DNA from: a bacterium
Lineage (GTDB): Bacteria; Patescibacteriota; Minisyncoccia; Phycocordibacterales; UBA2100
Direction of reading: 5' to 3'
DNA: 64,000 bases
Assembly: GCA_038128225.1 (NCBI GenBank)
Contig: JAYPJF010000002.1
Coordinates: forward strand, 39,451-103,450
In this document: positions 15,541 through 43,904 of the stretch, in pieces
Numbering within the stretch: the first letter of the stretch is position 1
Layout: the number at the start of each line of letters is the position of its first letter
The notes under the pieces: generated by a model
Database searches by the model: none
What the model was told of the DNA's origin: nothing
What the model saw: the letters and a program-made list of their open reading frames with translations, nothing else
Program-made: the position numbers and the translations under genes

Positions 15541-15567
15541 CATGAGTTTGCTCAAAATAAACTCATG
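15541..15567. promoter_or_regulatory. Perfect 9-bp inverted repeat (candidate operator) upstream of the 15600 gene
   Basis: CATGAGTTT-N9-AAACTCATG. TATACT lies 8 nt upstream of the ATG at 15600. Confidence 0.3.
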
Positions 15568-15599
15568 ATTTCTACACAATACACTGTATACTAGACACT

Positions 15600-15941: not shown

Positions 15942-15956
15942 ATAGTAGTAAAACGT

Positions 15957-16355: not shown

Positions 16356-16417
16356 TCTCGCTCTTGCGTCTTGCGGCGTGACTTTGGCGGCGCTTGTTTC
16401 ATTGCTATACTGCGCTC

Positions 16418-16990: not shown

Positions 16991-16992
16991 TC

Positions 16993-27343: not shown

Positions 27344-27367
27344 TCGGTGACCCGGTAGGCTTTCACA

Positions 27368-27988
27368 ATGGCGATCGTTGCACGGAATCTTGAGGGGATT
27401 AATGCGGTGGCGGTATCTCCGGCACAGAGGCTTGCACTCCCGGAGCCGCAGCATGTTTTCGCGCTTTTTCCAGGCGCGGCATCGAAAGGCTCTCGGCTTC
27501 TTGATGATGCGGCACTTCATATGCGTGCATTTACATTTCCCGAACTATCGCTGCAGCTCATTTTTGAACCCACGCGTATTCGTCTTGAAGCTACGACCGC
27601 ACATAAGCCTGCGGAATTGCGTCTTGGCGAAATTTTACACACTGTCGAAAAAACGATATTTCCAAAAAACACGTTCGAACGACACGGGTTTAATTACGAC
27701 ATTGCGTATCAGTACGACGCTATCATCCCGCAAAGAGCGTTGTGGGAGCGTTTTGTTTCTAAGGATGTGCTGGAGAACATGACCCATTTCGGTTGGCAAA
27801 TGACTCTCCAAAAAGGGAAAGGGGAACAGAAAGAAACGTACTTCTTTAAGGTGGTCTCACCACTCGAGCTCCGGGTACTTGCTAACATCGAAATTGACCA
27901 CAAACACGGGGATTTTGATGCACAGCGGAAGTTTGAAGAGTGTTATACTTCATCTCAAGAGATCGTGAATCACCTCACGTTCTCTTAG
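27368..27988 (+). CDS. Hypothetical protein (206 aa)
   Basis: ORF only. No recognisable family. Confidence 0.4.
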   Translation: MAIVARNLEGINAVAVSPAQRLALPEPQHVFALFPGAASKGSRLLDDAALHMRAFTFPELSLQLIFEPTRIRLEATTAHKPAELRLGEILHTVEKTIFPKNTFERHGFNYDIAYQYDAIIPQRALWERFVSKDVLENMTHFGWQMTLQKGKGEQKETYFFKVVSPLELRVLANIEIDHKHGDFDAQRKFEECYTSSQEIVNHLTFS

Positions 27989-27991
27989 TCG

Positions 27992-29491
27992 ATGACGCTC
28001 TCACATAATGGGATAAAATTTCGGAGAACGACCCGGCGATCTGTCGCTGTGTTTTTCATTTTGTGTGTTGAAATAGTTCTTTCGTTTTTCTTATACGTAA
28101 CATTAACCGCGCACATGCTGTGGCCTGAAAAGTCAGGCGCAGCGGTTGGTGTTGCCAACATACTTTCATATGAAGGTCGGCTCATGGATGAAAACGGTTC
28201 GCCGCTGGGCGGAACAGGCGAGCCGTATTGTTTTCGATTCTCGATTTACGACGCGCAGTCTTCCGGTACTAAATTGTGGCCATCAGGAACACCCGCAACC
28301 ACCACTGCAACCACTACCGACGGAGTATTCACTGCACTCATCGGCCAAGCAGACACGCTCGATTACAATTTTTATTCAAGCGACACGGTGTTTCTGAATG
28401 TTGACGTATACACGGCGACATCAACAAACGGCACTAATTGTTTTAATGGATCGTGGGAAACGCTCGCGCCGAGGCAGCGGGTTGCGGCAACGGGATACGC
28501 ACGCGCCGCGGAAAATGTCTATAGTTCACTTTTCTCAACCAACGTCGCTTCGGGTATCGTACAAGTGGGGACCGGCGTTGGCGGGGCGTCACCAAAATTT
28601 CTCGGACTTGATGTAAAAAACACTAATGACTATATCGGGCAATCGTGTGCTACTTCAGGAACCGTATGGTACAACTCTGCGATCTCGAAGGCGCTCGTGT
28701 GCGAAAACGGCGTGATCCAAGCAATCAGTAACTCTTCGGCCACTACCACTATCGCGGCGTTAACAGCAAATGGAGGCACGCCCGTAACCACGGGCACGGT
28801 CGTATTTTCAAATTCGAACGGTGTCACTTTTGGCATCAACGGAAACACGATCACGGCAAGCGTAAATGCGGGGGGCGGCGGCACCACCTATAGTGGATAT
28901 GCACCAGAGTATCATGGAAAAGAGCAGGTCGCGGGGCAGCAGGGGCAAGGAACGTTTTTTGTTCAGCCAATGTGGAATGCTCCTTCATTTCAATTTGATC
29001 GATTTGTGATGCCGATCAACTTTTCCAATACATCAAACTCTTCGGGTAGCGCAACCCTTTCATTTTGGGTGGGAGTGTACTCAAAAAATGTTTCAACACT
29101 TTCACTGGTCATGAGCAGCTCAGTTTCGACGAATGTGACTATGTCGGGAACTGCAGGGAGTTATTCACTCTACGCGGGCCCAAGAAACTTGACTATACCG
29201 TGGACGAGCACTCTTAGCGGAAGTGATTATTGGATTGGCATTGGATCGCGCACCACGACTGGCGGCGCAAACATGTCGATTTCGCAATTTTTGGCATCAC
29301 AACCAAACTCAGTGTATTCAGGAAACTTTGGTGTCGCGAGTAACGCGACGAAAGGAGGCATCCTCGGGCAAGGGTTTTATAGCGCAACAACTTCCGCCGT
29401 GCCGGCATCGATTGCGTTTACTCAAATCAATGCCTCAGGTTCCCTAAACCGCAGGCCGCCCGTGTATTTTTTCATGAGTGACTCTATATGA
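27992..29491 (+). CDS. Thr/Ser/Gly-rich secreted surface protein (499 aa) with an N-terminal TM/signal anchor
   Basis: N-terminal hydrophobic helix. Extended T/S/G/N-rich beta-rich sequence (PATTTATTTDG, SNSSATTTIAALTANGGT...). Its end overlaps the next gene's start (ATGA), suggesting translational coupling. Confidence 0.55.
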   Translation: MTLSHNGIKFRRTTRRSVAVFFILCVEIVLSFFLYVTLTAHMLWPEKSGAAVGVANILSYEGRLMDENGSPLGGTGEPYCFRFSIYDAQSSGTKLWPSGTPATTTATTTDGVFTALIGQADTLDYNFYSSDTVFLNVDVYTATSTNGTNCFNGSWETLAPRQRVAATGYARAAENVYSSLFSTNVASGIVQVGTGVGGASPKFLGLDVKNTNDYIGQSCATSGTVWYNSAISKALVCENGVIQAISNSSATTTIAALTANGGTPVTTGTVVFSNSNGVTFGINGNTITASVNAGGGGTTYSGYAPEYHGKEQVAGQQGQGTFFVQPMWNAPSFQFDRFVMPINFSNTSNSSGSATLSFWVGVYSKNVSTLSLVMSSSVSTNVTMSGTAGSYSLYAGPRNLTIPWTSTLSGSDYWIGIGSRTTTGGANMSISQFLASQPNSVYSGNFGVASNATKGGILGQGFYSATTSAVPASIAFTQINASGSLNRRPPVYFFMSDSI

Positions 29492-30216
29492 AATCCGCAG
29501 TCATTATCGAAAACCTTGGTCTCGGCGTTCATAACACTGATCTTCAGGCAACGGTCGCACGTTTGGAAAAGGGAAAAACGTATCAAAATCTTTCAACGAT
29601 CATAGTGTGTCCGACGCGCGGTATGATTCCGGATCGTGTCGTGCAGTCATGGATGGGGCTCATAAAGCCCATGAATCAAAAGATCGTTGGCCCCATATTC
29701 TTTCGTGGATATGAAGTGGGGGAAGCGTATAACATGGCGGTGAATTTTATTCTCTCCAACCCCGAACTCAGTACTTGGAAATACATGCTCACGATTGAAG
29801 AAGATAACTTACCCCCGCAAGATGGGCTCATGCGTCTGTATGAGAACATGGATACCTATGATGTTGTCGGTGGTTTGTATTGGACAAAAGGCGAAGGTGG
29901 TCAACCTATGATATATGGGGATCCAACTGTCGAGCCACTGAACTTTATTCCCCAAAAACCTGTTCCAGATACTTTGGTGCCTGCACGGGGACTCGGAATG
30001 GGATTCAATCTTTGGAAGATTGAGATGTTCAAAGATGAACGTATTCCGAGGCCGTGGTTTAAGACGTGGAATGACATAACCCCGGGGCAGGGTGCACGCG
30101 TGTATACACAAGACCTCTATTTTTACGAGAACGCGGGGAAAGCAGGGTATCGATTTGCGTGCGATACGCGGGTCAAAGTGGGGCATCTCGATGTTACAAC
30201 TGATGTTGTTTGGTAG
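29488..30216 (+). CDS. Putative GT-A-fold glycosyltransferase
   Basis: 242-aa ORF with a TIIVCPTRG opening, an acidic EED motif (TIEEDNLPP) and size consistent with a single-domain GT-A enzyme. Family not resolved. Confidence 0.4.
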   Translation: MKSAVIIENLGLGVHNTDLQATVARLEKGKTYQNLSTIIVCPTRGMIPDRVVQSWMGLIKPMNQKIVGPIFFRGYEVGEAYNMAVNFILSNPELSTWKYMLTIEEDNLPPQDGLMRLYENMDTYDVVGGLYWTKGEGGQPMIYGDPTVEPLNFIPQKPVPDTLVPARGLGMGFNLWKIEMFKDERIPRPWFKTWNDITPGQGARVYTQDLYFYENAGKAGYRFACDTRVKVGHLDVTTDVVW

Positions 30217-30219
30217 TAT

Positions 30220-31176
30220 ATGAAAAAATACATTTTCGCTCTCTGTGCACTCGTGTTTGTAGCGATAGGCGGATTTTTTGCAGGTGCGTATCCGCACAAT
30301 TCTGCGGGAGCAGAAAGCGCTCTTGCGGTGAAGAAGTCGAGTGGACACCCACTCATAAACCCCACTGTAACCGCTGGGCTTGAAAAACACTTCATCATCA
30401 ATGTGCAACCGTTGAAAGAACAATTTATGAGTATACAAAAACAATACGCACATAAAACGTATCTGTATTTTGCCTATCTTAATAATGATTCATGGGTGGG
30501 GTTGAGCGAGCGAGAGTATTTCACCGCCGCATCGACAATCAAAATTCCTCTTGCGATGAGTGTTATGCGTGCTGTGGAAACAGGAAAACTCTCACTCGAA
30601 GACAAATACACTATTACCTTTGACGATTTGGACGTGGGTTTTGGCACGTTCCACGAGCGTGCGGAAGGGAAAACGGTGAGTATTCGAGAATTAGTACGCA
30701 TCATGCTTGAGGAATCTGACAATACTGCAATGCAGTCATTAATTCATGTATTGCAAAACAGTGGCAGCACCGATCCTTTCGAACAAGTTTACGCGTTTAT
30801 GGGATGGGACAATTATCCTGGGCTTGGGGAGGCACCGGAATACTTCGCCATCAATCTCAAAGTACTTTCCAATATGTTTCTTGCACTCTACAATGCACGG
30901 TACGTAAACGCTGATCATTCTCAAGAAATACTACACTATCTCGATAATGCGAATTTTAACGAACAAATTGTTGCAGGGGTTCCGCATTCGATTGCGGTTG
31001 CGCATAAAAGCGGCGTGCAGACAGAGTCTCAAACGTATTCAGATTGTGGGATAGTATATGTCCCAAACCGGCATTATCTCCTCTGTTTGGGTTCGGAGGG
31101 CTCGTCAAAAGATATTGCCGACGCATTCATGAAAGAAGCATCGAAGGCGGCATATGAGTTTGTCATCAATAACTAG
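30220..31176 (+). CDS. Class A beta-lactamase-like serine hydrolase (secreted)
   Basis: Signal peptide plus the three class-A motifs in the right order: S-T-I-K (AASTIK), S-D-N (EESDNTAMQ), K-S-G (AHKSG). Confidence 0.65.
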   Translation: MKKYIFALCALVFVAIGGFFAGAYPHNSAGAESALAVKKSSGHPLINPTVTAGLEKHFIINVQPLKEQFMSIQKQYAHKTYLYFAYLNNDSWVGLSEREYFTAASTIKIPLAMSVMRAVETGKLSLEDKYTITFDDLDVGFGTFHERAEGKTVSIRELVRIMLEESDNTAMQSLIHVLQNSGSTDPFEQVYAFMGWDNYPGLGEAPEYFAINLKVLSNMFLALYNARYVNADHSQEILHYLDNANFNEQIVAGVPHSIAVAHKSGVQTESQTYSDCGIVYVPNRHYLLCLGSEGSSKDIADAFMKEASKAAYEFVINN

Positions 31177-31247
31177 GACAGGATTCTCGTCACCGCGGGA
31201 TACAAGCACCAGTGGAAGGGTGTCGAAAGCACTAGTATACTGGCGCG

Positions 31248-31760
31248 ATGAAGTTAGATATCGCGTGCGGACAAAATAAGCGTGAGGGATTTATGGGAGT
31301 CGATATTGCGCCAGGACCTGGCGTTGATTTTGTGTGGGACTTAGAACAATTTCCCTGGAAACCGTTCGCGGACAATTCAGTGGAAGAAGCGCATGTGTCG
31401 CATTATGCGGAACACACTAAAGACCTGATGTCATTTATGAACGAAGTGTGGCGAATTTGCGAAGATGGCGCAAAAGTGACAATTATCGGGCCGTACTACA
31501 CGTCTATTCGTGCGTGGCAGGATCCTACTCATACGCGCGCGTTGAGTGAGGCAACGTGGCAGTACTTTCAAAAACCGTGGCGAGAGGTGAATAAACTCGA
31601 CCATTACCCAATTAGGTGCGATTTCGAAGTTACAAACATGCTTCTGTTTTTTAATGAACCGTGGAATCAAAAATCGGAAGAGGCGCGCGCGTTTGCGGCG
31701 CAACACTACTTTAATGTAGTCTCCGATATACTGGTTGAACTGAAAGTCAAAAAAGCGTGA
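31248..31760 (+). CDS. Small class I SAM-dependent methyltransferase
   Basis: LDIACGQNKREGFMGVDI resembles MTase motif I, with a downstream acidic motif II-like DLEQFP. 170 aa. Confidence 0.4.
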   Translation: MKLDIACGQNKREGFMGVDIAPGPGVDFVWDLEQFPWKPFADNSVEEAHVSHYAEHTKDLMSFMNEVWRICEDGAKVTIIGPYYTSIRAWQDPTHTRALSEATWQYFQKPWREVNKLDHYPIRCDFEVTNMLLFFNEPWNQKSEEARAFAAQHYFNVVSDILVELKVKKA

Positions 31761-31772
31761 TACCCTTACGCT

Positions 31773-32219
31773 GTGTCGCCTCGAATAATTCATATCGGAG
31801 CATTATGCGCGGCACTCCTCGCCTCTGGTGCGGCGTTTCTTTATCTGCACCCGTTCGGATCGGAATCAGTTGTGTATGAGCGCATCGCATCTATTCCTGC
31901 GGCGCCGACGTTGCCACCGTCACCGCTTATGACCTATCCAGATCCTGATACCTACCAGCAGTTCGTGTTTGCTGCGCGCGCTGAGGCGGTGGTCGATATA
32001 ACGTGTGAGGATGCCTACGCGACGGTTCTGATCTATCCGCGCGACGTTGATTATCGGAAAAATCCCACGGGCGCAAAACACAACATCGCGTATCTGTGTG
32101 AAGAAAAAGGGGATACAGCGTTGTCGATTGATCTCCATGGCAAACCATTTACCGTGGGCGAGACCTACTACATTGTTCGCGCGCACCAAGGTAGCGGTGA
32201 ATGGTATAATCCCTATTAA
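31773..32219 (+). CDS. Hypothetical secreted protein (148 aa)
   Basis: Signal peptide (MSPRIIHIGALCAALLASGAAFLY), then a Pro-rich stretch. Confidence 0.4.
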   Translation: MSPRIIHIGALCAALLASGAAFLYLHPFGSESVVYERIASIPAAPTLPPSPLMTYPDPDTYQQFVFAARAEAVVDITCEDAYATVLIYPRDVDYRKNPTGAKHNIAYLCEEKGDTALSIDLHGKPFTVGETYYIVRAHQGSGEWYNPY

Positions 32220-32221
32220 GT

Positions 32222-32611
32222 ATGTGGCACTGGGTACAGTCATTCGTTTGGATATTTATTTTCGTGATGGTTTTTGGTGTCTTTGTGCTGTGGGGGCCTG
32301 CGCTAGGGCCGTTTCTATCTCTTCACACCGCGCCGTATACGCATGATGTATATGGAGTGTACTTAGAAAGTGGTCACGTGTTCTATGGAGAAATCAGATC
32401 AGTAGGATGGCACTCATTAGTGCTCGAAAATGTCCACTCGTTCCAGAATGTTACCGTGGGCGAAACTTCGACAAGTAATTTCCAGGCACAAAAAGATAAT
32501 CCGCTCACGCGGCCTGAAAACTGGTTGGTGATCGAACGAGACGCGATTCTTTTTTACGAGAAACTCACTCCTGCTGCAAAAATAATGTCGCTTATTCGTG
32601 GGGAATCATGA
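32222..32611 (+). CDS. Hypothetical membrane-anchored protein (129 aa)
   Basis: N-terminal TM helix. 4-nt overlap with the next gene. Confidence 0.4.
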   Translation: MWHWVQSFVWIFIFVMVFGVFVLWGPALGPFLSLHTAPYTHDVYGVYLESGHVFYGEIRSVGWHSLVLENVHSFQNVTVGETSTSNFQAQKDNPLTRPENWLVIERDAILFYEKLTPAAKIMSLIRGES

Positions 32612-34218
32612 ACTATGTAGTCGGTTTTATACTCGCAGGGTGCGTAGTGCCAACGATTGTGTTTGGATTCACCGCAACATCAACAAATTTTCACGTAAAT
32701 CAGGCAATTGTTTCGATCGGCGGCGGAAACCCCACAAGCTCAGTAAGTACATCGACCAACTTCCAGCTTTTTGGCGCTGGCGGGCAAACAGGCACGGGGA
32801 CGTCAACAATCGGTTCGTCATTTACGTTGTACGGTGGCTTTCTGCGCTCGATGTTCAAAAGTGTTCGTCCAACGTATACGCTCGAGCATTTTCATTGGCG
32901 CAATGATGATGGCACGGAAACATCAGCGACCTCGGGAACGTTGGGTGTGCAAGATACGGCAACGTCGTCGGTGCCAAAATCGGCAGCAAAACGATTGCGC
33001 ATTGCAGTTTCAAACGAAGGTGGGACTCAGGCAAACTACAGTGCTACCCAGTTTCGACTTGAGTACGGCCTTAAATCAACAACGTGTGGAGCGATAAGCT
33101 CGTGGAGTGATGTTGGTGCCGGTGCAGGGGATTGGGATATGTCAGATTCGAGCAATGTAACCAATGGAGGAAATACAACCAATATCGCGCTAGGTAGTGG
33201 AGGCGTCGGTGACGAGAACAAATACTTTATTGGAGATGGAGGTGTTCGCGATACCGCAAGCGAAACGAGCGCACAATTTGTTGAGAGTCACTCGTTTTAT
33301 GAAATCGAATATTCCATTCAGGCGCTCGCTGCTGCAACCGACAGTGGTACATATTGTTTTCGAGTGACCGCATCGGGTACCGATACGCTCTTTGTGTATG
33401 ACGTATACCCTGAAGCAACTCTTGCGGCAGGAGCGGGAACGCGGCCGATTGCTTCTGCGGTTTCGATTGACTCCGGTGCTGCCGCGGTGACACTCACCGA
33501 AAACACGATAAAAAACGTATCGTGCGTAGGCACGGTAACTGATACTGACGAATTTGCTGACATCACTTCGGTAACTGCAGATTTGTATCGAACTTCGGTG
33601 GGAGTCGGCGGGGGAGAGGATGACAATAACTACTACCAACTCGCAGGAGATGCGGAATGTGTTCCTTCAGGGGGCTCTGGAAACTCTGAAACATATACGT
33701 GTACATTTGCCGTGCAATATTTTGCCGACCCGACCGATACAGGTTCTCCAAATGCGAGTGACACATGGACGTGCACGATGACTCCTTCTGACGGCGTGGG
33801 AGCAGGAACTGCCGCGTCAGACACAATCGAAATGAATTCTCTCATGGCGCTCACGGTGACTGCGACGATTGCGTACGGAAGCGTGAATGCAAATGCCGAC
33901 ACGGGGAGTGTGAACCAAACGACAACGGTCACTAATACCGGCAATCGCGACATGGATCCAGAACTTTCAGGCGTCACCATGGCGGACGGAGGGAACTCCA
34001 TCGCCGTTGGTCAACAAAAGTACGCGGACGCTGCATTTACCTACACATCCGGAGGTGTCGCGCTTTCTACTACGCCGACAGCGATCAATGTAACTTTGCC
34101 TCAGCGGACCGGAGGAGCAATTAGCGACGATGTACTCTGGGGTCTTGGAGTTCCTAACGGTACACCGATCGGAAGTTACACAGGAACAAATACATTTACC
34201 GCAGTAGCGGGGTTGTAG
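32608..34218 (+). CDS. Thr/Gly-rich secreted surface protein, paralogue A (536 aa)
   Basis: N-terminal hydrophobic anchor. Shares with the 34273 gene the domain signatures TLTENT..., (I)A(Y/F)G(S/T)V(N/S)ANADTG..NQ..T.TNTGN, and a C-terminal (W)G(L/I)..PNG...G.YTG.NTFTAVA(G/D) motif. Confidence 0.55.
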   Translation: MNYVVGFILAGCVVPTIVFGFTATSTNFHVNQAIVSIGGGNPTSSVSTSTNFQLFGAGGQTGTGTSTIGSSFTLYGGFLRSMFKSVRPTYTLEHFHWRNDDGTETSATSGTLGVQDTATSSVPKSAAKRLRIAVSNEGGTQANYSATQFRLEYGLKSTTCGAISSWSDVGAGAGDWDMSDSSNVTNGGNTTNIALGSGGVGDENKYFIGDGGVRDTASETSAQFVESHSFYEIEYSIQALAAATDSGTYCFRVTASGTDTLFVYDVYPEATLAAGAGTRPIASAVSIDSGAAAVTLTENTIKNVSCVGTVTDTDEFADITSVTADLYRTSVGVGGGEDDNNYYQLAGDAECVPSGGSGNSETYTCTFAVQYFADPTDTGSPNASDTWTCTMTPSDGVGAGTAASDTIEMNSLMALTVTATIAYGSVNANADTGSVNQTTTVTNTGNRDMDPELSGVTMADGGNSIAVGQQKYADAAFTYTSGGVALSTTPTAINVTLPQRTGGAISDDVLWGLGVPNGTPIGSYTGTNTFTAVAGL

Positions 34219-34272
34219 GTGTGGATAACTACAGAGAGCGGCGACGCTTCACTATATACTTGATGAGTAACT

Positions 34273-35244
34273 ATGATGCGCCGTGCACGATCGCTCAACT
34301 TCAACGCGTGGACAATTTCCGCGGTAGTTTTTGCAGCAGGCGTTTTGGTCTCTGCAACTATCGTGCTCGCGGATACTGCATCAACTTCGGTTACGGTAGG
34401 TAACTCATCTCCTACCGTGAGTGCTGTGTCGATGAATGGCGGCACAAACATTACTCTTACCGAAAACACGTTTGTGAATGCCACAACAACGTTTACGGTA
34501 ACTGATGGGAACGGATGCAGTACGATTTCAAGTGTCTCGGCGCAGTTTGCCTTTGCTTCAACGAGCGCGGCGCTCTACGGAGCCAATTGTTCCTACAATG
34601 CGCAAGTGTGTTATTTCCCAACACTCTGTGCAGCAACAACGACAGGAAATACATGCACTGGTGGTTCTGATACTTCAGTACAGTATGATTGTGGCTACAA
34701 AATTTGGTATCCTGCGCGACCCACCGACGGCTCCTCCCCGGGTCTTTCGAGTGCGCAGTGGTACGTCTCAGCAACCGCGACGGACGCAAGCGCAGCAACA
34801 GGAAATGCAACAAATACCGGCGAAACCATTGAGGTTGTTACTTTGAATGCACTTAATGTGAGCGGATCCATTGGCTTTGGAACCGTCTCCGCAAACGCAG
34901 ACACTGGCGGCACGAATCAAAGCGTCACCCACACCAATACTGGAAATACCGCGATTGATAATCAGGTGTCTGGTGACGTAATGTGTACTGACTACTCGAC
35001 GTGTGTTGGTGGTGTACTGCAGCCATCGCAGCAGAAGTTTGGATTGAGTGACGTAACGTACGCTTCACTCACGAGTACACTCGCTGCAACCACATCGCCT
35101 GCATCAATTGAATTTGATCTGGCGACTTCCTCAGCAACCACCACTGCAATCACTGATTTGTCATATTGGGGTATTGCGATTCCAAACGGTCAGACCACTG
35201 GCGCGTATACGGGACAAAACACTTTTACCGCGGTTGCTGACTAG
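34273..35244 (+). CDS. Thr/Gly-rich secreted surface protein, paralogue B (323 aa)
   Basis: Signal peptide, the same motif set as paralogue A, and the C-terminal ...IPNGQTTGAYTGQNTFTAVAD. Confidence 0.55.
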   Translation: MMRRARSLNFNAWTISAVVFAAGVLVSATIVLADTASTSVTVGNSSPTVSAVSMNGGTNITLTENTFVNATTTFTVTDGNGCSTISSVSAQFAFASTSAALYGANCSYNAQVCYFPTLCAATTTGNTCTGGSDTSVQYDCGYKIWYPARPTDGSSPGLSSAQWYVSATATDASAATGNATNTGETIEVVTLNALNVSGSIGFGTVSANADTGGTNQSVTHTNTGNTAIDNQVSGDVMCTDYSTCVGGVLQPSQQKFGLSDVTYASLTSTLAATTSPASIEFDLATSSATTTAITDLSYWGIAIPNGQTTGAYTGQNTFTAVAD

Positions 35245-35276
35245 GTTTCCTGTCGCGCTCGTGTACACTTAAGCGC

Positions 35277-36167
35277 ATGTATCGAGGCTTACTTTTTTCA
35301 CTGGTACTGGTAGCCTTAACTGTCCCTTGGATTGCGGATGCCGGATTTGGTGTTTCGCCCCCACTTGTTAAAGAAGACCGCCTTGTTCCAGGTATTACGC
35401 TTGAGCGAATTGTGTACTTGGTCCAGGGTAGCCCTGAGCGCGATCTGCAAGTTGAGTTGTTTGTTGAATCTGATATCAGCGACTGGATACGCTTTCCGCA
35501 AGGTAACCCGATCACGATTCCAAAAGGTGTGCAACAATTTCCTCTTGCTGTGCAGGTGAGTGTGCCCGCTGACGCGCAGCTCGGTGTATATAAAGGCTCT
35601 ATTCGCATCACCACGGTACCTGAAAAAGCTGACGAGGCAGGTGAAGTAGCGATCGCGATTGGCGGATTGGTTGAACTGGATCTCACGGTTGGTAATGACG
35701 TTATTGTCGATTTGAAAGTGCGTACGATTAAGATTTTGAATGTGAAGGAAGGCGATGACGCTGAAGCAGATGTCACTATCGTTAATAGCGGCAACGCACC
35801 GGCTGCACCAGACGCGGCGACGTTTGAATTATTCAACAAATTTGGTGAGCTACGACTAGCGTATGGTGAGACGCAAGAGTTCAAGCTTGTGCCCGCGTTT
35901 GGCGAGCTCGTTGAACATCTTTCGTTTCCTATCGATATTCATCTTGCTCCTGGAGAATACTGGGGCCACGTTAAAGTGTACAAAGATAAGGAGTTAATTG
36001 GAGAGTTGCGTACGGTGTTTAATGTTACGGAAAAAACCTTTTTGGAAAAATACCAGTGGTATCTCGTGGGTGCATTGGGGCTTCTTGCATCCATACTCCT
36101 CCTTGTATTTGTTGTCATGATGCGGCGCCAGAACAGACCCGTATACTACGAGCAACCTATACGATGA
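35277..36167 (+). CDS. Secreted protein with a C-terminal TM anchor (architecture reminiscent of DUF916/DUF3324-type cell-surface proteins, low confidence)
   Basis: Signal peptide, a GFGVSPPLV... beta-rich ectodomain, then a C-terminal TM helix (WYLVGALGLLASILLLVFVVMM) plus a basic tail. Confidence 0.45.
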   Translation: MYRGLLFSLVLVALTVPWIADAGFGVSPPLVKEDRLVPGITLERIVYLVQGSPERDLQVELFVESDISDWIRFPQGNPITIPKGVQQFPLAVQVSVPADAQLGVYKGSIRITTVPEKADEAGEVAIAIGGLVELDLTVGNDVIVDLKVRTIKILNVKEGDDAEADVTIVNSGNAPAAPDAATFELFNKFGELRLAYGETQEFKLVPAFGELVEHLSFPIDIHLAPGEYWGHVKVYKDKELIGELRTVFNVTEKTFLEKYQWYLVGALGLLASILLLVFVVMMRRQNRPVYYEQPIR

Positions 36168-36170
36168 AAC

Positions 36171-37265
36171 ATGCGCGTTGCAGCATTGCTACTTATTGTG
36201 TGCTTCATAAGCACGTGGGTGTATGCGGACACGGCGTCGATAACGGTAACGGTGATTATCGCACAGTGTACTGACGGGTCTGATAATGATGGCGATACGC
36301 TGATTGACTACCCTTCTGACCCAGGGTGTTCTTCGACTGGGGATAATGATGAATCAAACGCTGCCCCGCACTGCTCGGACACTCTGGATAATGATTCTGA
36401 CGGTCTTACTGATTACCCCGCAGATCCTGGGTGCTATAAAACCAGTTATATTTCCGAGGCAATGGCTGCGGGGGGCGGCGGTGGTGGCGGGGGGGGTGGA
36501 GGAGGCGGAGGTGGGGTGGTATCGAGTGGGTCAGCGGTGACTCTAACCGGGTACGCCTATCCAAATAGCGTTGTGCACGTATACCAAGACGGACGACGGG
36601 TATTAGAAGTGTATGCGGGTTCCGATGCGCGCTTTACTGCAACGATACAAAATCTTTCTGCGGGTATTTATACGTTTGGTGTAAGTGCGCAAGATGAAGA
36701 CGGAAGACGTTCGGCGCTGTTTAATATTCCACTCTCCGTCTCTGTTTCATCACAAACAAGTATTGGCGGCACCGTACTCGCACCAACGATAACATCGGAT
36801 TACGAAAAAATTCGTCACGGTGACACTTTGACGCTTTTTGGAGCAACGATTCCGAACGCGCAAGTGACTGTTGAAGTCAATTCTGAGACACAGCTCTTTG
36901 TTCGCGCTGAATCAAATGCTGATGGCGCGTATCTCGCGAGATTTGATACGTCACAGATCGAGCGCGGAGATCACGTCGCGCGCGCGAAAGCCGAGTCTGA
37001 AACTCTTTCGATTCCGTATGGGACGGCGATAGGGTTTGTTGTTGGCGATGTAAACGTGCCGCGTGTTGAGGCGTCTGGTTCGGTGCGTAAAGGCGATCTC
37101 ACAAGTGATGGAAAAGTTGATATTCGAGATTTTTCAGTTGCTGCGTACTGGTATCGACGAACACTTACCGCCGAGTTTGCGCTCATCGAGTCTGAAAGGC
37201 TCAATGGCGATGGAAAAATTGATCTGAAAGATTTTAGTATCATGGCGTATTATTGGACCTCATAA
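36171..37265 (+). CDS. Secreted dockerin-domain protein with two Cys/Asp-rich Ca-binding-like repeats and a Gly15 linker
   Basis: Signal peptide. Two copies of C(T/S)DxxDNDxDxLxDYPxDPGC (thrombospondin-type-3-like DxDxDG). GGGGGGGGGGGGGGG linker. Beta-rich domain. C-terminal duplicated dockerin-like segments GDLTSDGKVDIRDFSVAAYWY / LNGDGKIDLKDFSIMAYYW. Confidence 0.55.
   Translation: MRVAALLLIVCFISTWVYADTASITVTVIIAQCTDGSDNDGDTLIDYPSDPGCSSTGDNDESNAAPHCSDTLDNDSDGLTDYPADPGCYKTSYISEAMAAGGGGGGGGGGGGGGGVVSSGSAVTLTGYAYPNSVVHVYQDGRRVLEVYAGSDARFTATIQNLSAGIYTFGVSAQDEDGRRSALFNIPLSVSVSSQTSIGGTVLAPTITSDYEKIRHGDTLTLFGATIPNAQVTVEVNSETQLFVRAESNADGAYLARFDTSQIERGDHVARAKAESETLSIPYGTAIGFVVGDVNVPRVEASGSVRKGDLTSDGKVDIRDFSVAAYWYRRTLTAEFALIESERLNGDGKIDLKDFSIMAYYWTS
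36468..36525 (+). repeat. Poly-glycine codon tract containing G6 and G8 homopolymers
   Basis: GCGGGGGGCGGCGGTGGTGGCGGGGGGGGTGGAGGAGGCGGAGGTGGGG, with G8 at 36489-36496. Confidence 0.8.
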
Positions 37266-38113
37266 CTATGCGTATCTGTTTTCGACCATTTCTCTTCGCC
37301 GCGTTAATAGCTGTGTTTGTTATAGTCCCAGACCAGGCGATTGCCGCATCAGTTGAAGCACGTGTCGCTCGAGACGGGGCCCTGTGGAGAGTCACATATA
37401 TTTTGCACGCAGAGGGGGCTGCGTTAAACGTACTTGCGGGGACGTTTCCTTTTTCTTCTGATCTAAAAGTAGAGCGCATAGAAACTGGACGTAGTATCAT
37501 CCAGCTTTGGGTTACTTCTCCCAAAAATGACCGTGCTGGCGTAACGTTTGAAGGAGTTGTTCCGGGCGGATTTTTGGGGAGCGCAATCCCGTCCCGAGGA
37601 TTGACTGGCTCGGGAGAAATAATGACTGCCGTCTTTTCATCAGAAAAGGATCATGGGATATTGGCGGGTGGTTCTATTAGAGGGTATCTTCACGATGGCA
37701 GTGGGACGGAGGTTTCGCTTCCGTTTGCTGAAGTCACGTTTGATGCACGAACTCCTGAAGAAAACGTTTCTGATGACCGTACACCTCCCGCACGTATTTT
37801 TTTTGAAATTCTAAACGAGCCTTCAATGCTCGTGCTTGACGCTCAAGATAAAGAAACAGGCATCGATCGCTACGAGGTGAAGATAGGGCGCACTGAATGG
37901 AAGACTGTCGAGCCGCCGGTGCCGCTTTCGCAGGCGGAGCGAGATGCGCGCATTGCCGTGCGTGCATTTGATAACGCCGGAAATTTTCGTGAAGCCCTTG
38001 TTCAGGAATCATCTCCGAACGAAACATACAAGCGCATCTTAGGTATTATTGGCATACTCGTGATCGTCCTCGTACTGGCGGCGGTATATATGCGCGTGAT
38101 GCACAGGGAGTAG
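37253..38113 (+). CDS. Hypothetical secreted protein with a C-terminal TM anchor (286 aa)
   Basis: Signal peptide (FLFAALIAVFVIVPDQAIA), a beta-rich ectodomain, and a C-terminal TM helix (ILGIIGILVIVLVLAAVYM). Confidence 0.45.
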   Translation: MDLITMRICFRPFLFAALIAVFVIVPDQAIAASVEARVARDGALWRVTYILHAEGAALNVLAGTFPFSSDLKVERIETGRSIIQLWVTSPKNDRAGVTFEGVVPGGFLGSAIPSRGLTGSGEIMTAVFSSEKDHGILAGGSIRGYLHDGSGTEVSLPFAEVTFDARTPEENVSDDRTPPARIFFEILNEPSMLVLDAQDKETGIDRYEVKIGRTEWKTVEPPVPLSQAERDARIAVRAFDNAGNFREALVQESSPNETYKRILGIIGILVIVLVLAAVYMRVMHRE

Positions 38114-38137
38114 TTTCAGAACTTCTCTATACCGTCT

Positions 38138-39115
38138 ATGATACGTTTTATGAAGCACGCATTATTCTCTGGGATGCTCGGTGCGCTCTACTTCTGTGTA
38201 GGGGCGCTACCGTTAGTTGCAGATGCTGCAACACTCCAATTTGGTGGCGCAACGCAGGGGACTGTTGGAAGCACGCTCACGATTCCGATTACCGTGAGCG
38301 CAGCACAAGGAGAATCGGTTAACGCGGTTTCTGCAACAGTGCGTTTTCCCGCTGCGCTACTTGAGGCGACCTCAATGTCTTCTTCGGGGAGCATCGTAAA
38401 TTTTTGGGTGCAGCAACCAAGTTTTTCAGCCTCAGCGGGGACAGCAGAACTTGAGGGGGTAATACTCAATCCAGGTTTTAGCTCTCAGCAAGGAATAGTT
38501 GCAACACTGACGTTTCGAGTTCGCGCTGCTGGAGCAGCAACACTCTCATTTTCTTCGGCTTCAGTTTTAGCGAATGATGGGGCGGGGAGTAACATACTCA
38601 CCGCGTCTCCGTCAAAAACACTCACCCTTACTGCTCCTGAGGTAAAGAAAGAAGAGCAAAAGAAGATCGAGCCGACGACAGGAAGCGCTGAAGAGAAAAA
38701 ACCAATCGAGGTTGTGCCGCCACCACTACGTGAAGCAACAAGCGCTCTTGAGATTTCGCCGATACAGGACGATGTCCCCGCGACGTCGACTTACCAGACG
38801 CATCCGGCACCGTCGTTCGGGTATGCACTTCCTTTAGCAACGGGGCTCGCGATCCTTGGCTGGCTCATAATACTTGCACGGTTCCTTTTCGATCGGAGAG
38901 CTAAGGTGCCGCCTTTGAAACGTATCGCTGCAGCCGACCGCGCACTCCACCAAGCGCTTAAAGACCTACGATCTGACCTCTCGCACGAACTGAAACATTT
39001 GCGCGCAAAAGAGGGCGCAGGCACGCTAACGGTCGAGGAACGGCATATTTTGAAGCGTTTTGCAGGAGCGATGAACGAATTTGATAAAATTGACTCCGAC
39101 TCGGAGCGAGCGTAA
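38138..39115 (+). CDS. Membrane-anchored cohesin-like domain protein with a cytoplasmic coiled-coil tail
   Basis: Signal peptide. ATLQFGGATQGTVGSTLTIPITVSAAQGESVNAVSATVRFPAALLEATS...GIVATLTFRVRAAGAATLSFSSASVLANDGAG matches the cohesin beta-sandwich pattern (GxT(V/L)xIPVx(V/F)S...VNAxxxx(V/I)xF(D/P)..LE...). Then a Pro/Glu linker, a TM helix (LATGLAILGWLIILARFLF), and a basic/coiled tail. Confidence 0.55.
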   Translation: MIRFMKHALFSGMLGALYFCVGALPLVADAATLQFGGATQGTVGSTLTIPITVSAAQGESVNAVSATVRFPAALLEATSMSSSGSIVNFWVQQPSFSASAGTAELEGVILNPGFSSQQGIVATLTFRVRAAGAATLSFSSASVLANDGAGSNILTASPSKTLTLTAPEVKKEEQKKIEPTTGSAEEKKPIEVVPPPLREATSALEISPIQDDVPATSTYQTHPAPSFGYALPLATGLAILGWLIILARFLFDRRAKVPPLKRIAAADRALHQALKDLRSDLSHELKHLRAKEGAGTLTVEERHILKRFAGAMNEFDKIDSDSERA

Positions 39116-39150
39116 GAAGACCACTTGCTTTTGGAAGAAGAGCGAGTAGA

Positions 39151-39528
39151 GTGCCGTACATGAAATACAAATACACAGCCATCGTCGGGGCGATTCTTAT
39201 TCTTGCGGGATTGTTTGTATGGGGTTCTTTTGGGCGTGCTGCACAACCACAAGCAGAAGAGCCAGTGCGCCACCTGGTCGAGGTATCAGGTAACATTGTT
39301 CATGGTGAGCCGCAGAGAACTAAGCATGGGTGGCGTTTTAAAGAAAATGGCAACGTATTTGAGCTCGCTTTTTCTTCTCAAAGCATATGTGCAGGAAAAA
39401 CATCTTCTGGTATTTGTAACCCCACAAAGTTTATTGATGGACGTGCGGCGGATCTAGAAGGAGAACTTGTTGATGGGCTTTTGCGTGTGTACAAGCTTAC
39501 ATTTACTGAACCAGTAACGACTCAATAA
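39151..39528 (+). CDS. Hypothetical membrane-anchored small protein (125 aa)
   Basis: N-terminal TM helix. Two Cys residues in the ectodomain. Confidence 0.4.
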   Translation: MPYMKYKYTAIVGAILILAGLFVWGSFGRAAQPQAEEPVRHLVEVSGNIVHGEPQRTKHGWRFKENGNVFELAFSSQSICAGKTSSGICNPTKFIDGRAADLEGELVDGLLRVYKLTFTEPVTTQ

Positions 39529-39529
39529 T

Positions 39530-39970
39530 ATGCGCCTCCGCGTCGTTTTGAGCATTCTCGCGGCACTACTCATATGTACGGGAGTGTACTTGTTGCTTCT
39601 GAAACCTGATCACGATGGTGTGCAAAAGACCTCTTCTGTCATCATGCCGCCGACGGTTACGTGGCTTTTTGCAGAAAGTGCTGCCGCTGGTCCGGAAACT
39701 CCACCCAAAACGAAAGTGATTATCCGAACAGAACGAGGCCTTAAAGATGTAGGCATGTATGACGGAACATGTTTTGATGTTGCAGGCTCGAACTGGGAAT
39801 TAGTCAGTGGAGAAATATCCGCCGTGATTTGTTATTGGGCAGGAGGCGGCACGGAAATTGGTGTGTTTGAAGAAAATGGAGAGTATGTGGTGAAAGAAGG
39901 GGTTATTGAGGAGCCCACCGAAGAAACCGACGGCATTCGAGGTGTATTTAAGACACTCTTTGTGCTTTAA
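39530..39970 (+). CDS. Hypothetical membrane-anchored small protein (146 aa)
   Basis: N-terminal TM helix and an acidic C-terminus. Confidence 0.4.
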   Translation: MRLRVVLSILAALLICTGVYLLLLKPDHDGVQKTSSVIMPPTVTWLFAESAAAGPETPPKTKVIIRTERGLKDVGMYDGTCFDVAGSNWELVSGEISAVICYWAGGGTEIGVFEENGEYVVKEGVIEEPTEETDGIRGVFKTLFVL

Positions 39971-39997
39971 AGGGAATGGGTAATTGAACTGAAAACA

Positions 39998-40024
39998 AAA
40001 ACACCCAGCAGCGCTGGGTGTTTT
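39998..40024. terminator. Bidirectional hairpin terminator between the surface operon (+) and the LTD gene (-)
   Basis: AAAACACCCAGC-AGC-GCTGGGTGTTTT followed by T. Confidence 0.5.
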
Positions 40025-40037
40025 TGGTACGAGTCGT

Positions 40038-41717
40038 TTATAAACCTGGTGTCGGTGTTTCTCGGTCTACCCAATCACTTGCGGTATTGGTGTCAGTAGT
40101 TACTGACGATCGAGCAATCGAGTGACCGTCTGCGACTGACGCGGTTGATGGATCAAACGCTGTTGTATTTGACCCCCACGAAACTGCGTCAACCACAGTG
40201 TCTCCGCTTTTTAGAAACACTCCGTCGCTCGAATTACTCAAACCGTTGCCGATTGAGCCGCCCAGAACAACTACCGGTACACCCCCGGGGAAACTCCAGA
40301 AGTTCGCGGTTGTGCTGGTGCCGGTGACAATGAGGTATCCTCCTGCTGCGATCGTTGTTGTTGCAGGGAAGGCATCAGTTGAAGTAGCGTCCATGATAGA
40401 CCATCCGCTTATGTCGACAGGGGAAGCTGTGGGGTTATAAAGTTCCACCCACTCATTTCCGGGGTCGTCACCGTGAGCCGTGTCAGGATTATAGTACGCC
40501 TCACTGATAATGACATGAGCAACTTGCGGCGCGGGTTCAAGTACCGTCACCACGACGCTGTCCGCCGCTTCACCGCCCAATCCAGAGCACGTGAGCGTGT
40601 ATGTGCTTGTAGTCGCTGGACTTGCTGCAATCGAACTGTTGAGCGGAACTGCGCCACTCCATGCTCCTGAGCCTGTGCAGGTTGTTGCCTGTGTTGACGC
40701 CCACGAAAGCGTCGTAGTTCCGCCACGGGTAATAGTTGTTGGGTTGGCCGTCAAATCCACCGTCGGCATTGGGTGTGGACTTACGGTCACGGTTTCCGAT
40801 TCAGATACTGAACCTCCCGCGCCCGTACAGGTGAGCGTGTACGTTGTTGTCGTTGCAGGGGTAACTACCATGGAGCCTGAGGTGTCTTTTGACCCCGACC
40901 AGCCATCTGAGGCGGTGCACGCGGTGGTGTTTGTTGAACTCCAGCTGATAAGCGAGCTTGTGCCTACAAGGATACTCGCCGGGTTAACGGTAAGCGAAAG
41001 AGTTGGTGTGGGCGCTGGTGTAACCGTAACCGTTGTTGTGCCCGAAACCGATCCTCCGTTTCCTGTGCACGTAAGAACATACTGCGCGGTTGTGGTAGGA
41101 GAGACGCCCTCGCTGCCTGAAGTTGTTTTTAACCCACTCCAATTGCCTGATGCGGTGCAGCCGTTTGCGTTTGCAGCAGTCCATGAGAGTGTCGCGCTGT
41201 TGCCGGACACTATCGTTGTTGGGCTAGCGCCGAAGGTAAGAGTTGGCTGCGAGGGCGGCGCCGCGTTTACGGTAACCGTTGCGGAATCGCTTGTGGATCC
41301 AGTCGCATTACTGCAGGTGAGTGTGTATGTAGTCGTTGTTGCTGGGGAGACACTCAGAGAGCCATTTTTTTCTTGAGCGCCACTCCAACCACCGGAAGCC
41401 GTACACGTTTCGGCGTTTGCACTTGACCAGGTAAGTAACGATGAGCTGCCCACAGTAATCGACTCTGGGTTACTTACGTGAGATACGGTAGGTACAGGCA
41501 GCGGCGGAGTCTCACGACACATCCATAACTGCACGTGACTCGGGAACCGTTGTTTCAGCGGTTTAAGACCTTCGCACACTTGATCGTAAATATGGTTACG
41601 CAGATCATCGTATCGAAGTGGCGAATGATACGCGGAGCCAGCCTCAAGGACACCGACTCCTGCCGATAAAAACACAAGAGTTAATAAACCAAGCCAAGAA
41701 GCACGAAGTAATGCCAT
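40038..41717 (-). CDS. Secreted protein with 4 tandem Ig-like repeats and a C-terminal lamin-tail domain (LTD)
   Basis: Signal peptide. Four repeats of ~90 aa (T(L/V)T.NP..I..G.S..L.W.S.NA..CTASG.WSG.K..SGS..VSPATTTTYTLTC.G.GGS.S.S.TVTV). C-terminal HVIISEAYYNPDTAHGDDPGNEWVELYNPTASPVDISGW...SNSSDGVFLKSGDTVVDAVSWG is the LTD signature. Confidence 0.7.
   Translation of the reverse strand: MALLRASWLGLLTLVFLSAGVGVLEAGSAYHSPLRYDDLRNHIYDQVCEGLKPLKQRFPSHVQLWMCRETPPLPVPTVSHVSNPESITVGSSSLLTWSSANAETCTASGGWSGAQEKNGSLSVSPATTTTYTLTCSNATGSTSDSATVTVNAAPPSQPTLTFGASPTTIVSGNSATLSWTAANANGCTASGNWSGLKTTSGSEGVSPTTTAQYVLTCTGNGGSVSGTTTVTVTPAPTPTLSLTVNPASILVGTSSLISWSSTNTTACTASDGWSGSKDTSGSMVVTPATTTTYTLTCTGAGGSVSESETVTVSPHPMPTVDLTANPTTITRGGTTTLSWASTQATTCTGSGAWSGAVPLNSSIAASPATTSTYTLTCSGLGGEAADSVVVTVLEPAPQVAHVIISEAYYNPDTAHGDDPGNEWVELYNPTASPVDISGWSIMDATSTDAFPATTTIAAGGYLIVTGTSTTANFWSFPGGVPVVVLGGSIGNGLSNSSDGVFLKSGDTVVDAVSWGSNTTAFDPSTASVADGHSIARSSVTTDTNTASDWVDRETPTPGL
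40400..41495 (-). repeat. Tandem ~270-bp coding repeats (4 copies) encoding the Ig-like modules
   Basis: Visible protein-level periodicity, and recurrent DNA blocks (e.g. GTGAGCGTGTA...GTTGTCGTTGCAGG, ACGGTAACCGTTG...). Confidence 0.65.
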
Positions 41718-42833: not shown

Positions 42834-43904
42834 ATGTCAATATTTCGGATGCCGAAAGCACCTTCGTGGTTTGAGCCATACGTGCGCTACATCCCAACTG
42901 TTGCGCTTGTTTGGGGTATTATTTGGGACTCGCTCACACTGAGCCGCCCGGATCGCATTTTTGATAATCTTGTCGTACTTGCATACCTCACGCTTTCCGC
43001 GGGGATAATAGTACTCCTCAACATGGAACATAAGCGGCGCAGCATAGAACCGCTACTTCTTTTAGGCGTTCTTCAGTTTAGTTTTGGCAACCTGACAAGT
43101 GCACTCCTAATTTTGTACACAAAAAGTGGCACTATCATCGGAGGGGCGCTTTTTCTCGGGTTACTTGCACTTCTTTTGGTGAGTAACGAAGTGTTGCGTG
43201 AACGATATCAGCGCCTTCAGGTTCATATTGCGGTATGGTACCTTCTTGTACTTGCATACGCCGTTCTTATTGTGCCGGTACTCGTGGGCTCGATCGAATG
43301 GTATATGTTTTTTATGAGTCTTGGGGTTGCCCTCGGTGCCGCCATCGGACTTTTAAGTGTTGTGCACGCGGTAAGCCCGACAACAGTATGGAATCGTGTG
43401 CGGAATGTCGGTCCTTCAATAACTGCAGTTTCAATTGCGGTTATCGGACTCTACGCATTTAACTGGATTCCACCGGTCCCTCTCGCGCTTAAACATGTTG
43501 GTGTATATCACGCGGTGACTCGCACGGCAGAGGGATATGAGCTTACATACGAGGCGCCTTCGCGGCTCGCTTTTTGGCGATCCACAAGCGCAACGTATAA
43601 CCATCAAGGACAGCCAGCTTTTTGCGTCAGTGCCATATTTGCTCCAAAAAATCTGTCGCTTACGATCTACCATCGGTGGGAAAAGTGGAGTGAGGAACGA
43701 GAAGATTGGGACACCGTAAGCCTGATTCCATTTTCTATGAACGGGGGACGTGATGAGGGTTACCGTGGCTATTCTGAAACGAACCGTCTTACTCCAGGGT
43801 TGTGGCGCTGCGATGTTGAAACAGAACGGGGAGCCCTTATCGGCCGGGTAAAATTTTTTGTTCAGGAGGGTACTCCGACAGAATTATTTACCCGAGCGCT
43901 ATAA
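42834..43904 (+). CDS. Polytopic membrane protein with a C-terminal soluble domain (DUF2914-like, low confidence); start uncertain
   Basis: 5-6 TM helices, then a ...TIYHRWEKWSEE...TPGLWRCDVETERGALIGRVKFFV beta-rich domain. Confidence 0.4.
   Translation: MSIFRMPKAPSWFEPYVRYIPTVALVWGIIWDSLTLSRPDRIFDNLVVLAYLTLSAGIIVLLNMEHKRRSIEPLLLLGVLQFSFGNLTSALLILYTKSGTIIGGALFLGLLALLLVSNEVLRERYQRLQVHIAVWYLLVLAYAVLIVPVLVGSIEWYMFFMSLGVALGAAIGLLSVVHAVSPTTVWNRVRNVGPSITAVSIAVIGLYAFNWIPPVPLALKHVGVYHAVTRTAEGYELTYEAPSRLAFWRSTSATYNHQGQPAFCVSAIFAPKNLSLTIYHRWEKWSEEREDWDTVSLIPFSMNGGRDEGYRGYSETNRLTPGLWRCDVETERGALIGRVKFFVQEGTPTELFTRAL

Follow-up and report, generated by a model that had tools for sequence, protein, structure and literature searches.

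The locus described here lies in a 64000-nt stretch of DNA (GenBank assembly GCA_038128225.1; contig JAYPJF010000002.1, coordinates 39451 to 103450 of the forward strand), referred to as the window, and coordinates are those of the window unless preceded by the designation of a related locus (L number). It is a dedicated, conserved cell-surface locus of ultrasmall Paceibacteria, which belong to the candidate phyla radiation (CPR). A dedicated surface locus with a cohesin and dockerin set and embedded enzymes had been proposed in the initial annotation of this DNA, and both the conservation of a gene block and the domain profiles bear this out. Fifteen consecutive open reading frames (ORFs), densely packed on the forward strand between 27368 and 39970, were designated g1 to g15, with g0 located upstream (25769–27343) and g16 convergent. 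The conserved block extends from 25769 to 39115 and consists of a core, g8–g13 (32608–39115), preceded by an accessory module, g0–g7. The core genes, with lengths in amino acids (aa) and transmembrane (TM) segments where relevant, are as follows:

g8, 32608–34218, forward strand: 'large' secreted protein with a variable N-terminal region and a C-terminal two-domain module of ~260 aa in common with g9
g9, 34273–35244, forward strand: 'small' secreted protein with two beta-sandwich domains and the mature N-terminal strand motif ADTASTSVTVGN
g10, 35277–36167, forward strand: WxLIP-like protein; a signal peptide precedes two beta-sandwich domains of PapD/Ig-like type, with a TM helix at the C-terminus
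g11, 36171–37265, forward strand: secreted adaptor with a signal peptide, an ADTASITVTV strand motif, two Cys-bounded DNDGD modules, a poly-Gly run, two Big_6 domains and a dockerin
g12, 37268–38113, forward strand: protein anchored in the membrane; signal peptide, then a cohesin-like domain joined by a PPE linker to an OmpL47-type beta domain, and a TM helix at the C-terminus
g13, 38138–39115, forward strand: cohesin protein anchored in the membrane; signal peptide, cohesin domain and linker, then a TM helix and ~70 aa of helical cytoplasmic tail

The spacing between the genes from g1 to g15 ranges from −4 to 71 nt. True 4-nt overlaps are present at two junctions, g2/g3 (29488–29491) and g7/g8 (32608–32611), and gaps of 1–3 nt at six more. 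The overlap of g11 and g12 is only apparent, requiring a TTG start at 37253, and gene calls on identical public contigs start g12 at the ATG at 37268. The dense co-directional array first described therefore stands, with 15 genes in place of 14 and with 4-nt overlaps at two junctions rather than many. An N-terminal hydrophobic segment was found in 12 of the 15 forward-strand proteins; g1, g3 and g5 lack hydrophobic segments and presumably stay in the cytoplasm, so that the description of the products as almost exclusively signal-peptide or TM proteins applies to those 12. A C-terminal TM helix is confined to g10, g12 and g13, three proteins and not the four originally counted. No match was obtained for g1, g2, g6, g7, g8, g9, g14 or g15 in scans of Pfam, NCBIfam and PHROG, nor any above threshold for g0. 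Promoter-like sites occurred less often than chance would predict, and no inference was drawn from them.

Related loci were fetched via protein look-ups and one genome scan, and the window proteins were mapped onto their ORFs with phmmer; the scan of the genome collection, made with a reduced alignment, yielded 10 loci, and the synteny set comprised 16 distinct Paceibacteria loci. Identical or near-identical contigs were also present in several public runs. For g9, g10 and g3, every homolog is a hypothetical protein of a metagenome-assembled genome (MAG) from Paceibacterota, Parcubacteria or Lloydbacteria, in agreement with the small-genome bacterium initially suspected. The order large–small–g10–g11–g12–g13 recurs in L006, L007, L008 (without g13), L010, L011, L013 and L016 to L021, at ~20–70% protein identity, and in a variant form in L022. 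The whole g0–g13 series was also found in three other species (L007/L014, L022 and L023), g0–g2 and g5–g7 of L022 and L023 having been assigned by gene order and size. Co-conservation of the block, on which the initial annotation had made its proposal depend, thus holds for g8–g13 in all full-length related loci and for g0–g7 in those three species, but not for g14–g16, which were found in none of the loci from other species. In L019, toxin–antitoxin and defence genes, for AbiEii, HicB-like and PDDEXK proteins, are inserted (L019:7037–8509 and 11051–11464) and the order of the block is intact.

The proteins encoded by g8 and g9 are 38% identical across 277 aa (E 1e-30), consistent with the two paralogous Thr/Gly-rich proteins noted at the outset. 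The g8 orthologs, 529–1645 aa in length, differ in their N-terminal regions while the C-terminal module is constant, and they are always encoded upstream of g9. In g9, a segment at the mature N-terminus is conserved (A33, D34, T38, V40, V42, N44 and P47) and was modelled as coil; both domains of the model are seven-stranded, with no obvious missing strand. Profiles of the g9 and g10 families gave only chance-level matches against PDB sequences. The small protein deviates in some loci, being absent from L023, ~620 aa long in L016 and L017, and 1111 aa long in L018. The spacing of a C-terminal Y-x5-F-x-A pattern is presumably similar to that of WxL motif 2, and was taken as a lead rather than as a test.

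Two of the related loci contain large proteins of unusual construction. In L006 (coordinates 5004–9938), the 1645-aa large protein consists of a g0-like N-terminal TM-anchored region and a C-terminal module of the g8/g9 type, the N-terminal ~320 aa of g0 matching over 342 aa with 25% identity (E 1e-13). As the fused region is TM-anchored, the large protein is probably bound to the membrane in that species. In L022 (coordinates 12243–17736), the small protein of 204 aa corresponds to the last 170 aa of a 1588-aa large protein (50% identity, E 6e-36). This shared module has a size like that of a WxL domain and no match to the Pfam WxL model, and no homology to the g9 module could be detected except in a C-terminal YTGT-T-TA strand.

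The predicted structure of g10 (predicted local distance difference test score, pLDDT, 93) shows a pair of beta-sandwiches and a TM helix. Together with the signal peptide, this is the architecture of a WxLIP protein, in which a C-terminal TM helix comes after a tandem pair of Ig-like domains, and the best structural match of the model was the solved WxLIP1 structure. Matches to chaperone-like structures were no better than those to generic PapD-like domains. In L022, the protein encoded at the g10 position passes the Pfam WxLIP_PGBD model (32.1 bits against a cut-off of 27.3), and was aligned with the g10 family by hhalign with a probability of 95% (E 2.5e-8). As L022 pairs its large and small proteins via a different module, the WxLIP-like protein and the large/small pairing seem to be what stays constant in the system, with both the shared module and the N-terminal payload free to vary.

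The g10 family is large, with 2084 clusters at 50% identity (E up to 0.001). When 52 distant members were scanned for WxLIP_PGBD, SH3b and CARDB domains turned up instead, a C-terminal SH3b domain being present in 15 of the 52. SH3b domains are cell-wall binders. In the nine SH3b-type relatives inspected, a two-TM hairpin precedes the C-terminal region, a topology that would place the SH3b region outside the cell. One relative of this type, in L024 (coordinates 185–1666), is preceded by a gene ending in a g9-type C-terminal motif and is not followed by a dockerin gene, and no dockerin or cohesin neighbours were found within the short contig. As the pair occurs there without a dockerin gene, it is likely that a g9-type and a g10-type protein form the minimal unit and that the cohesin–dockerin set is an addition.

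The protein encoded by g11 matches Big_6 (7.9e-9), as do 12 of 14 members of its family. Its match to Dockerin_1 is below the Pfam cut-off (19.6 bits against 22.9), but Dockerin_1 was matched by all 14 family members, with a best value of 9e-9. The duplicated D-x-N-x-D...D calcium loop is invariant, with D309, N311, D313, D320, D347 and D354 conserved, and lies at the extreme C-terminus. At the level of the family, the C-terminus of g11 is therefore predicted to be a dockerin with two calcium-binding loop–helix repeats, which supports the dockerin originally assigned, though not from the window protein by itself. The mature N-terminal motif of g11 is the same as that of g9, with alternate positions conserved, and the two co-vary between loci, reading SVEV and SVEI in L013, and AQ..TTVTV and AQ..TTLTISV in L016 and L017. 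As the shared motif changes in parallel and is conserved at alternate residues, it is read as a beta-strand that both proteins would offer to a common partner.

In g13, the cohesin domain first suspected there scored above the Pfam gathering cut-off (31.7 bits against 24.1), and 6 of 11 family members match the same model (best 1.4e-10); the TM segment spans residues 227–252. Pfam Cohesin was matched by only 1 of 13 members of the g12 family (1.7e-4), with additional weak PDB matches to scaffoldin cohesins of R. flavefaciens. However, comparison of the g12 and g13 families using hhalign gave a probability of 100% (E 2e-41) across the cohesin domain, the PPE linker and the OmpL47-type domain. 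The latter was recognised in g12 by NCBIfam barrel_OmpL47 at 3.4e-8, below the model cut-off, and is followed by a TM segment at residues 252–281. By profile comparison, g12 is thus a predicted second cohesin protein and a paralog of g13, where only an anchored protein had been listed before.

The charged, helical C-terminal tail of g13 (38894–39115; ~70 aa) is partly conserved in relatives (F..LR...L..EE..L) and may point to a connection with an intracellular component. A short patch of g11 (36419–36494), just before the poly-Gly run, differs at 13 nucleotides in 76 bp from L002, which is otherwise identical over ~20 kb, and the differences turn CDSTSDNSEANAS into CYKTSYISEAMAA. The poly-Gly run of g11 is also 2 residues shorter in L004. 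Local conversion, slippage or an assembly effect could account for this variation.

The cohesin–dockerin part was compared with non-cellulosomal cohesin–dockerin systems and anchoring scaffoldins. Like these, it includes a cohesin that passes its Pfam model, a canonical duplicated calcium-binding dockerin at the C-terminus of its carrier, and cohesin carriers that are attached to the cell. Unlike scaffoldins, g12 and g13 are anchored by a C-terminal TM helix and not via S-layer homology (SLH) domains or sortase, an OmpL47-type domain comes after each cohesin, no enzymes are recruited, and one dockerin faces two paralogous cohesins.

A WxL (Csc) gene cluster consists of one WxLIP, made up of DUF916, DUF3324 and a TM helix, together with two WxL proteins, one small and one large, the latter having its C-terminal WxL domain behind variable host-binding domains (PMC10599100, PMC9772566). 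These clusters are found almost only in the Lactobacillales and Bacillales (PMC10599100). The core of the locus in the window has the same layout, with a large, variable protein and a small protein that share a C-terminal module, paired in all full-length loci, adjoining a protein in which two Ig-like domains precede a C-terminal TM helix and which has a syntenic CPR counterpart recognised by WxLIP_PGBD. On these grounds the locus was placed close to the WxL type, with which the initial annotation had not identified it. In contrast to the known WxL clusters, neither a WxL domain nor a W-x-L motif pair was detected in the g9 family, the shared module has two domains and ~260 aa where a WxL domain has 160–190 aa, g10 matches neither DUF916 nor DUF3324, and there is no LPXTG partner at this locus. 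The locus is also found in the CPR, and includes a conserved dockerin protein and two cohesin anchors. From sequence comparison, it is best described as having the layout of a WxL cluster without the sequence signatures of one, together with a conserved cohesin–dockerin extension.

The interpretation favoured here, given an even chance of being correct, is that the core forms a WxL-like, non-covalent adhesin platform with a cohesin–dockerin membrane anchor. All six core proteins (g8–g13) would be exported via the Sec pathway, and the common C-terminal two-domain module of g8 and g9 would dock both proteins at the cell envelope, with g8 as the large protein carrying a lineage-variable N-terminal binding region. 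The membrane-tethered, WxLIP-related g10 would capture and stabilise g8 and g9 by beta-strand augmentation, probably via the conserved mature N-terminal strand of g9. As g11 has the same strand motif and a dockerin, it could join the assembly to the membrane-anchored cohesins g12 and g13. The cohesin–dockerin part would then be an add-on to the WxL-like core and not its basis. The g0–g7 genes would form an accessory module for envelope modification or display that travels with the core in some lineages. A likely role for the system is adhesion of the ultrasmall bacteria to a host cell or substrate, and the locus is a good candidate for attachment to hosts or surfaces.

Several observations weigh against a WxL-like platform. 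The WxL domain (PF13731) was found in none of 54 g9-family members, and the search with the g9 fold returned generic Ig-like matches only, to which no family could be assigned. Neither WxLIP_PGBD (DUF916) nor DUF3324 was matched by g10 or by 53 close and 52 distant members of its family, and, as there is no family-level WxLIP signature, the link between g10 and WxLIP consists of one structural match and one transitive profile match. The arrangement in L024 suggests that the g8–g10 half and the cohesin–dockerin half may act independently. The contacts between the proteins, peptidoglycan binding and adhesion are all putative parts of the scheme, and so is any glycosylation of the Thr-rich proteins.

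The alternative that fared best, considered unlikely but credible, is a strand-exchange fibre, in effect a single-membrane pilus, in which each g9 subunit would donate its N-terminal strand to the next one as the fibre polymerises. In such a fibre, g8 would be the tip adhesin, g10 a membrane-tethered PapD-like chaperone, and g11 would provide the last donor strand and the base anchor to g12 and g13. It would explain why the conserved segment at the mature N-terminus of g9 was modelled as coil, and why g11 has the same, co-varying motif, while g8, with its extra N-terminal region joined to a pilin-like module, is built in the way that tip adhesins are. Donor-strand fibres that need no usher do exist, namely TasA, archaeal bundling pili and cannulae (PMC9245690). 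The locus resembles these and the chaperone–usher pili in the two-domain PapD-like fold of g10, the conserved N-terminal strand of g9 with its alternating residues, and the tip-adhesin arrangement of g8. However, the sandwiches of the g9 model are complete, with seven strands per domain, the small protein is missing in one locus and much larger in three others, the resemblance of g10 to chaperones is generic, and no usher, sortase or Peptidase_M73/TasA signature was found in the locus proteins. In contrast to chaperone–usher systems, there is also no outer membrane, and g10 is tethered to the membrane.

A more specific form of this alternative is a previously undescribed type of single-membrane fibre made of g9 with g8 at the tip, with g10 as a PapD/WxLIP-like chaperone and g11–g13 as a dockerin/cohesin base, and it is less probable again. 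If this form were to prove correct, the WxL clusters of Firmicutes and the CPR system would descend from one ancient strand-complementation machinery.

The remaining explanations are less likely than either the WxL-like platform or the fibre. It is improbable that the locus directs a general envelope architecture, an S-layer-like or wall-associated glycoprotein coat rather than an adhesin, with g9 and g2 as abundant coat proteins, g10, g12 and g13 as tethers, and g3, g4 and g5 modifying the wall or coat. The richness of g2, g8 and g9 in Thr, Ser and Gly would suit a coat, as would the GT-A-like enzyme and the hydrolase related to penicillin-binding proteins (PBPs) embedded in the locus, the very wide distribution of the g3 family (5170 homologs) and the g10 family (2084 clusters) and the wall-binding SH3b domains of some g10 relatives. 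However, no SLH or other S-layer signature was found in profile scans of the locus proteins, and the N-termini of g8 orthologs vary strongly between lineages and g2–g4 are hypervariable between strains. Because of this variability, interaction surfaces under diversifying pressure fit better than a structural coat.

That the genes encode independent surface proteins with no joint function, adjacent and nothing more, is very improbable. The pair and the cohesin–dockerin set can occur apart, as in L024, but gene order is kept across 16 loci at 20–40% identity, even with the mobile or defence genes inserted in L019, and this synteny disfavours mere adjacency, as do the gene fusion in L006 and the co-varying motif of g9 and g11. 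Least probable of all is a cellulosome-like system in miniature that captures or degrades polysaccharides, as, despite the presence of cohesin and dockerin modules and an early proposal that Csc/WxL clusters serve carbohydrate use (PMC1534035), no glycoside hydrolase, carbohydrate-binding module (CBM) or other carbohydrate-active enzyme (CAZyme) domain was found in any locus protein, the single dockerin protein, g11, has Ig-type domains only, and weak matches to the N-domain of GH123 concern a non-catalytic beta-sandwich.

Membership of known systems was also considered. A cellulosome was rejected because no catalytic CAZyme or CBM domain is encoded in the locus, and a chaperone–usher pilus because there is no outer-membrane usher. 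A sortase-assembled pilus was rejected because no LPXTG-like motif (regular-expression search of all locus proteins) and no sortase domain were found, and TasA/camelysin and archaeal bundling pili because Peptidase_M73 (PF12389) was not found in g8, g9 or 54 family members. A type IV pilus was rejected on its defining features. The initial annotation had likewise recognised neither type IV pili, sortase pili nor an SLH-type S-layer, and no LPXTG, sortase or SLH signature was detected.

In the full-text literature, no paper was found that links CPR, Patescibacteria or Parcubacteria to cohesin–dockerin surface loci or to WxL. Paceibacteria and other non-Saccharibacteria CPR are uncultured, and type IV pili are the only surface apparatus discussed in the literature searched. 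The locus would represent a second, widespread CPR surface system, with ~2000 clusters at 50% identity in the g10 family. It would extend the range of WxL-type clusters, almost all of them described so far in lactic-acid bacteria and Bacillales, to a phylum only remotely related, and would be a case of cohesin–dockerin pairing used as a membrane anchor for proteins that are not enzymes. A variable 'payload' protein with strain-hypervariable neighbours is the pattern expected of molecules that face a host or phage, and, if the contacts are confirmed, the large proteins would be candidates for host-range prediction in CPR genomes.

The genes of the accessory module are:

g0, 25769–27343, forward strand: 524-aa protein with an N-terminal TM anchor, outside the limits first given for the locus but linked to the system
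g1, 27368–27988, forward strand: 206-aa protein without a signal peptide and with no Pfam, NCBIfam or PHROG match
g2, 27992–29491, forward strand: 499-aa Thr/Ser/Gly-rich surface protein with an N-terminal TM anchor (residues 14–44)
g3, 29488–30216, forward strand: GT-A-glycosyltransferase-like protein, predicted to be cytoplasmic
g4, 30220–31176, forward strand: class-A beta-lactamase/PBP-like serine hydrolase with an N-terminal TM anchor
g5, 31248–31760, forward strand: small S-adenosylmethionine (SAM) methyltransferase-like protein, predicted to be cytoplasmic
g6, 31773–32219, forward strand: small protein with an N-terminal hydrophobic anchor and no family match
g7, 32222–32611, forward strand: small protein with an N-terminal hydrophobic anchor and no family match

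Homologs of g0 were found upstream of the core in L007, L016 and L017, and a probable one in L023 by position and size only. A sequence homolog of g1 is present in L007, with size-matched genes at the same position in L022 and L023. The 499-aa Thr-rich protein described initially is g2, which has an ortholog in L007 (E 4e-113); g2 was considered as a paralog of g8 and g9, and this was rejected because g2 is unrelated to g8 by sequence comparison. Directly upstream of g8, homologs of g6 were found in L007 and of both g6 and g7 in L009. The g6-like ORF of L007 also weakly matches g0 (7e-5), and a small domain may therefore be common to g6 and the C-terminal part of g0.

Three enzymes had been proposed in the initial annotation, one of them the serine hydrolase encoded by g4. 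It matches Pfam Beta-lactamase2 (5.9e-38), and the S-x-x-K, S-D-N and K-[ST]-G motifs are present as STIK105, SDN166 and KSG263, so that g4 is predicted to be a class-A beta-lactamase/PBP-like serine hydrolase. Its gene is located immediately upstream of the large-protein gene in L006, L010, L011 and L019.

No Pfam match was obtained for g3 itself. The glycosyltransferase assignment was supported only through its family, the profile of which matches PDB 2c0n (A197 of Sulfolobus turreted icosahedral virus, STIV; E 1.9e-5), while 12 of 16 family members weakly match Glycos_transf_2. The A197 protein is a GT-A glycosyltransferase. The match of g3 to a PHROG glycosyltransferase family was 0.005, and E104 and D106 in the 'IEEDN' segment are invariant in the family alignment. 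There are 5170 homologs of g3, and among the 120 matches listed identity to the window protein is 67–83%. Conservation of g3 thus reaches far beyond that of its neighbours, and the closest of its relatives to have been characterised come from viruses (STIV A197 and the PHROG families).

The assignment of g5 was partly sustained. Its match to Methyltransf_11 (0.0027) is below the Pfam cut-off, but a PHROG methyltransferase family gave a match at 1.8e-6, and the counterpart in L023 has Methyltransf_11 on record; g5 is thus weakly predicted to be methyltransferase-like. An ortholog is present in L007 (E 2e-95). Taken over the whole locus, the cohesin, dockerin, lamin-tail domain (LTD), class-A beta-lactamase-like, GT-A-like and methyltransferase calls hold, some of them at family level only.

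Part of the accessory module differs between closely related strains. In L001, the genes flanking g2–g4 (27992–31176) are 100% identical to those in the window, whereas identity is 67.5% for g2 (499 versus 542 aa), 76% for g3 and 51% for g4. Identity of g0 to its L001 counterpart is 94%. The g2–g4 segment looks like a recombined or hypervariable cassette within the accessory module.

The features downstream of the core are:

g14, 39160–39528, forward strand: small protein with a hydrophobic N-terminus, at the operon end
g15, 39530–39970, forward strand: small protein with a hydrophobic N-terminus, at the operon end
39996–40026, both strands: bidirectional intrinsic-terminator-like hairpin with a 14-bp stem, 7 GC pairs and a following T-run
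g16, 40038–41717, reverse strand: secreted protein with four Ig-like repeats of ~80 aa and an LTD, convergent to the operon

The hairpin was the strongest site in the terminator scan and separates g15 from g16. This terminator-like element is predicted to close both the forward-strand operon and the convergent g16. The composition of g16 is as first described, with an LTD (3e-17) and four repeats of ~80 aa encoded on the reverse strand. However, the related loci of other species revealed no homolog of g14, g15 or g16, g16 being present only in contigs of the same species. As these genes are not co-conserved and are located at or beyond the operon end, they were not counted in the system, and the inclusion of the LTD/Ig protein in it was abandoned.

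Located 2 kb further downstream on the reverse strand (43899–45550) are genes for a DUF5667 protein and an extracytoplasmic function (ECF)-type sigma factor, a pair that could regulate envelope genes.

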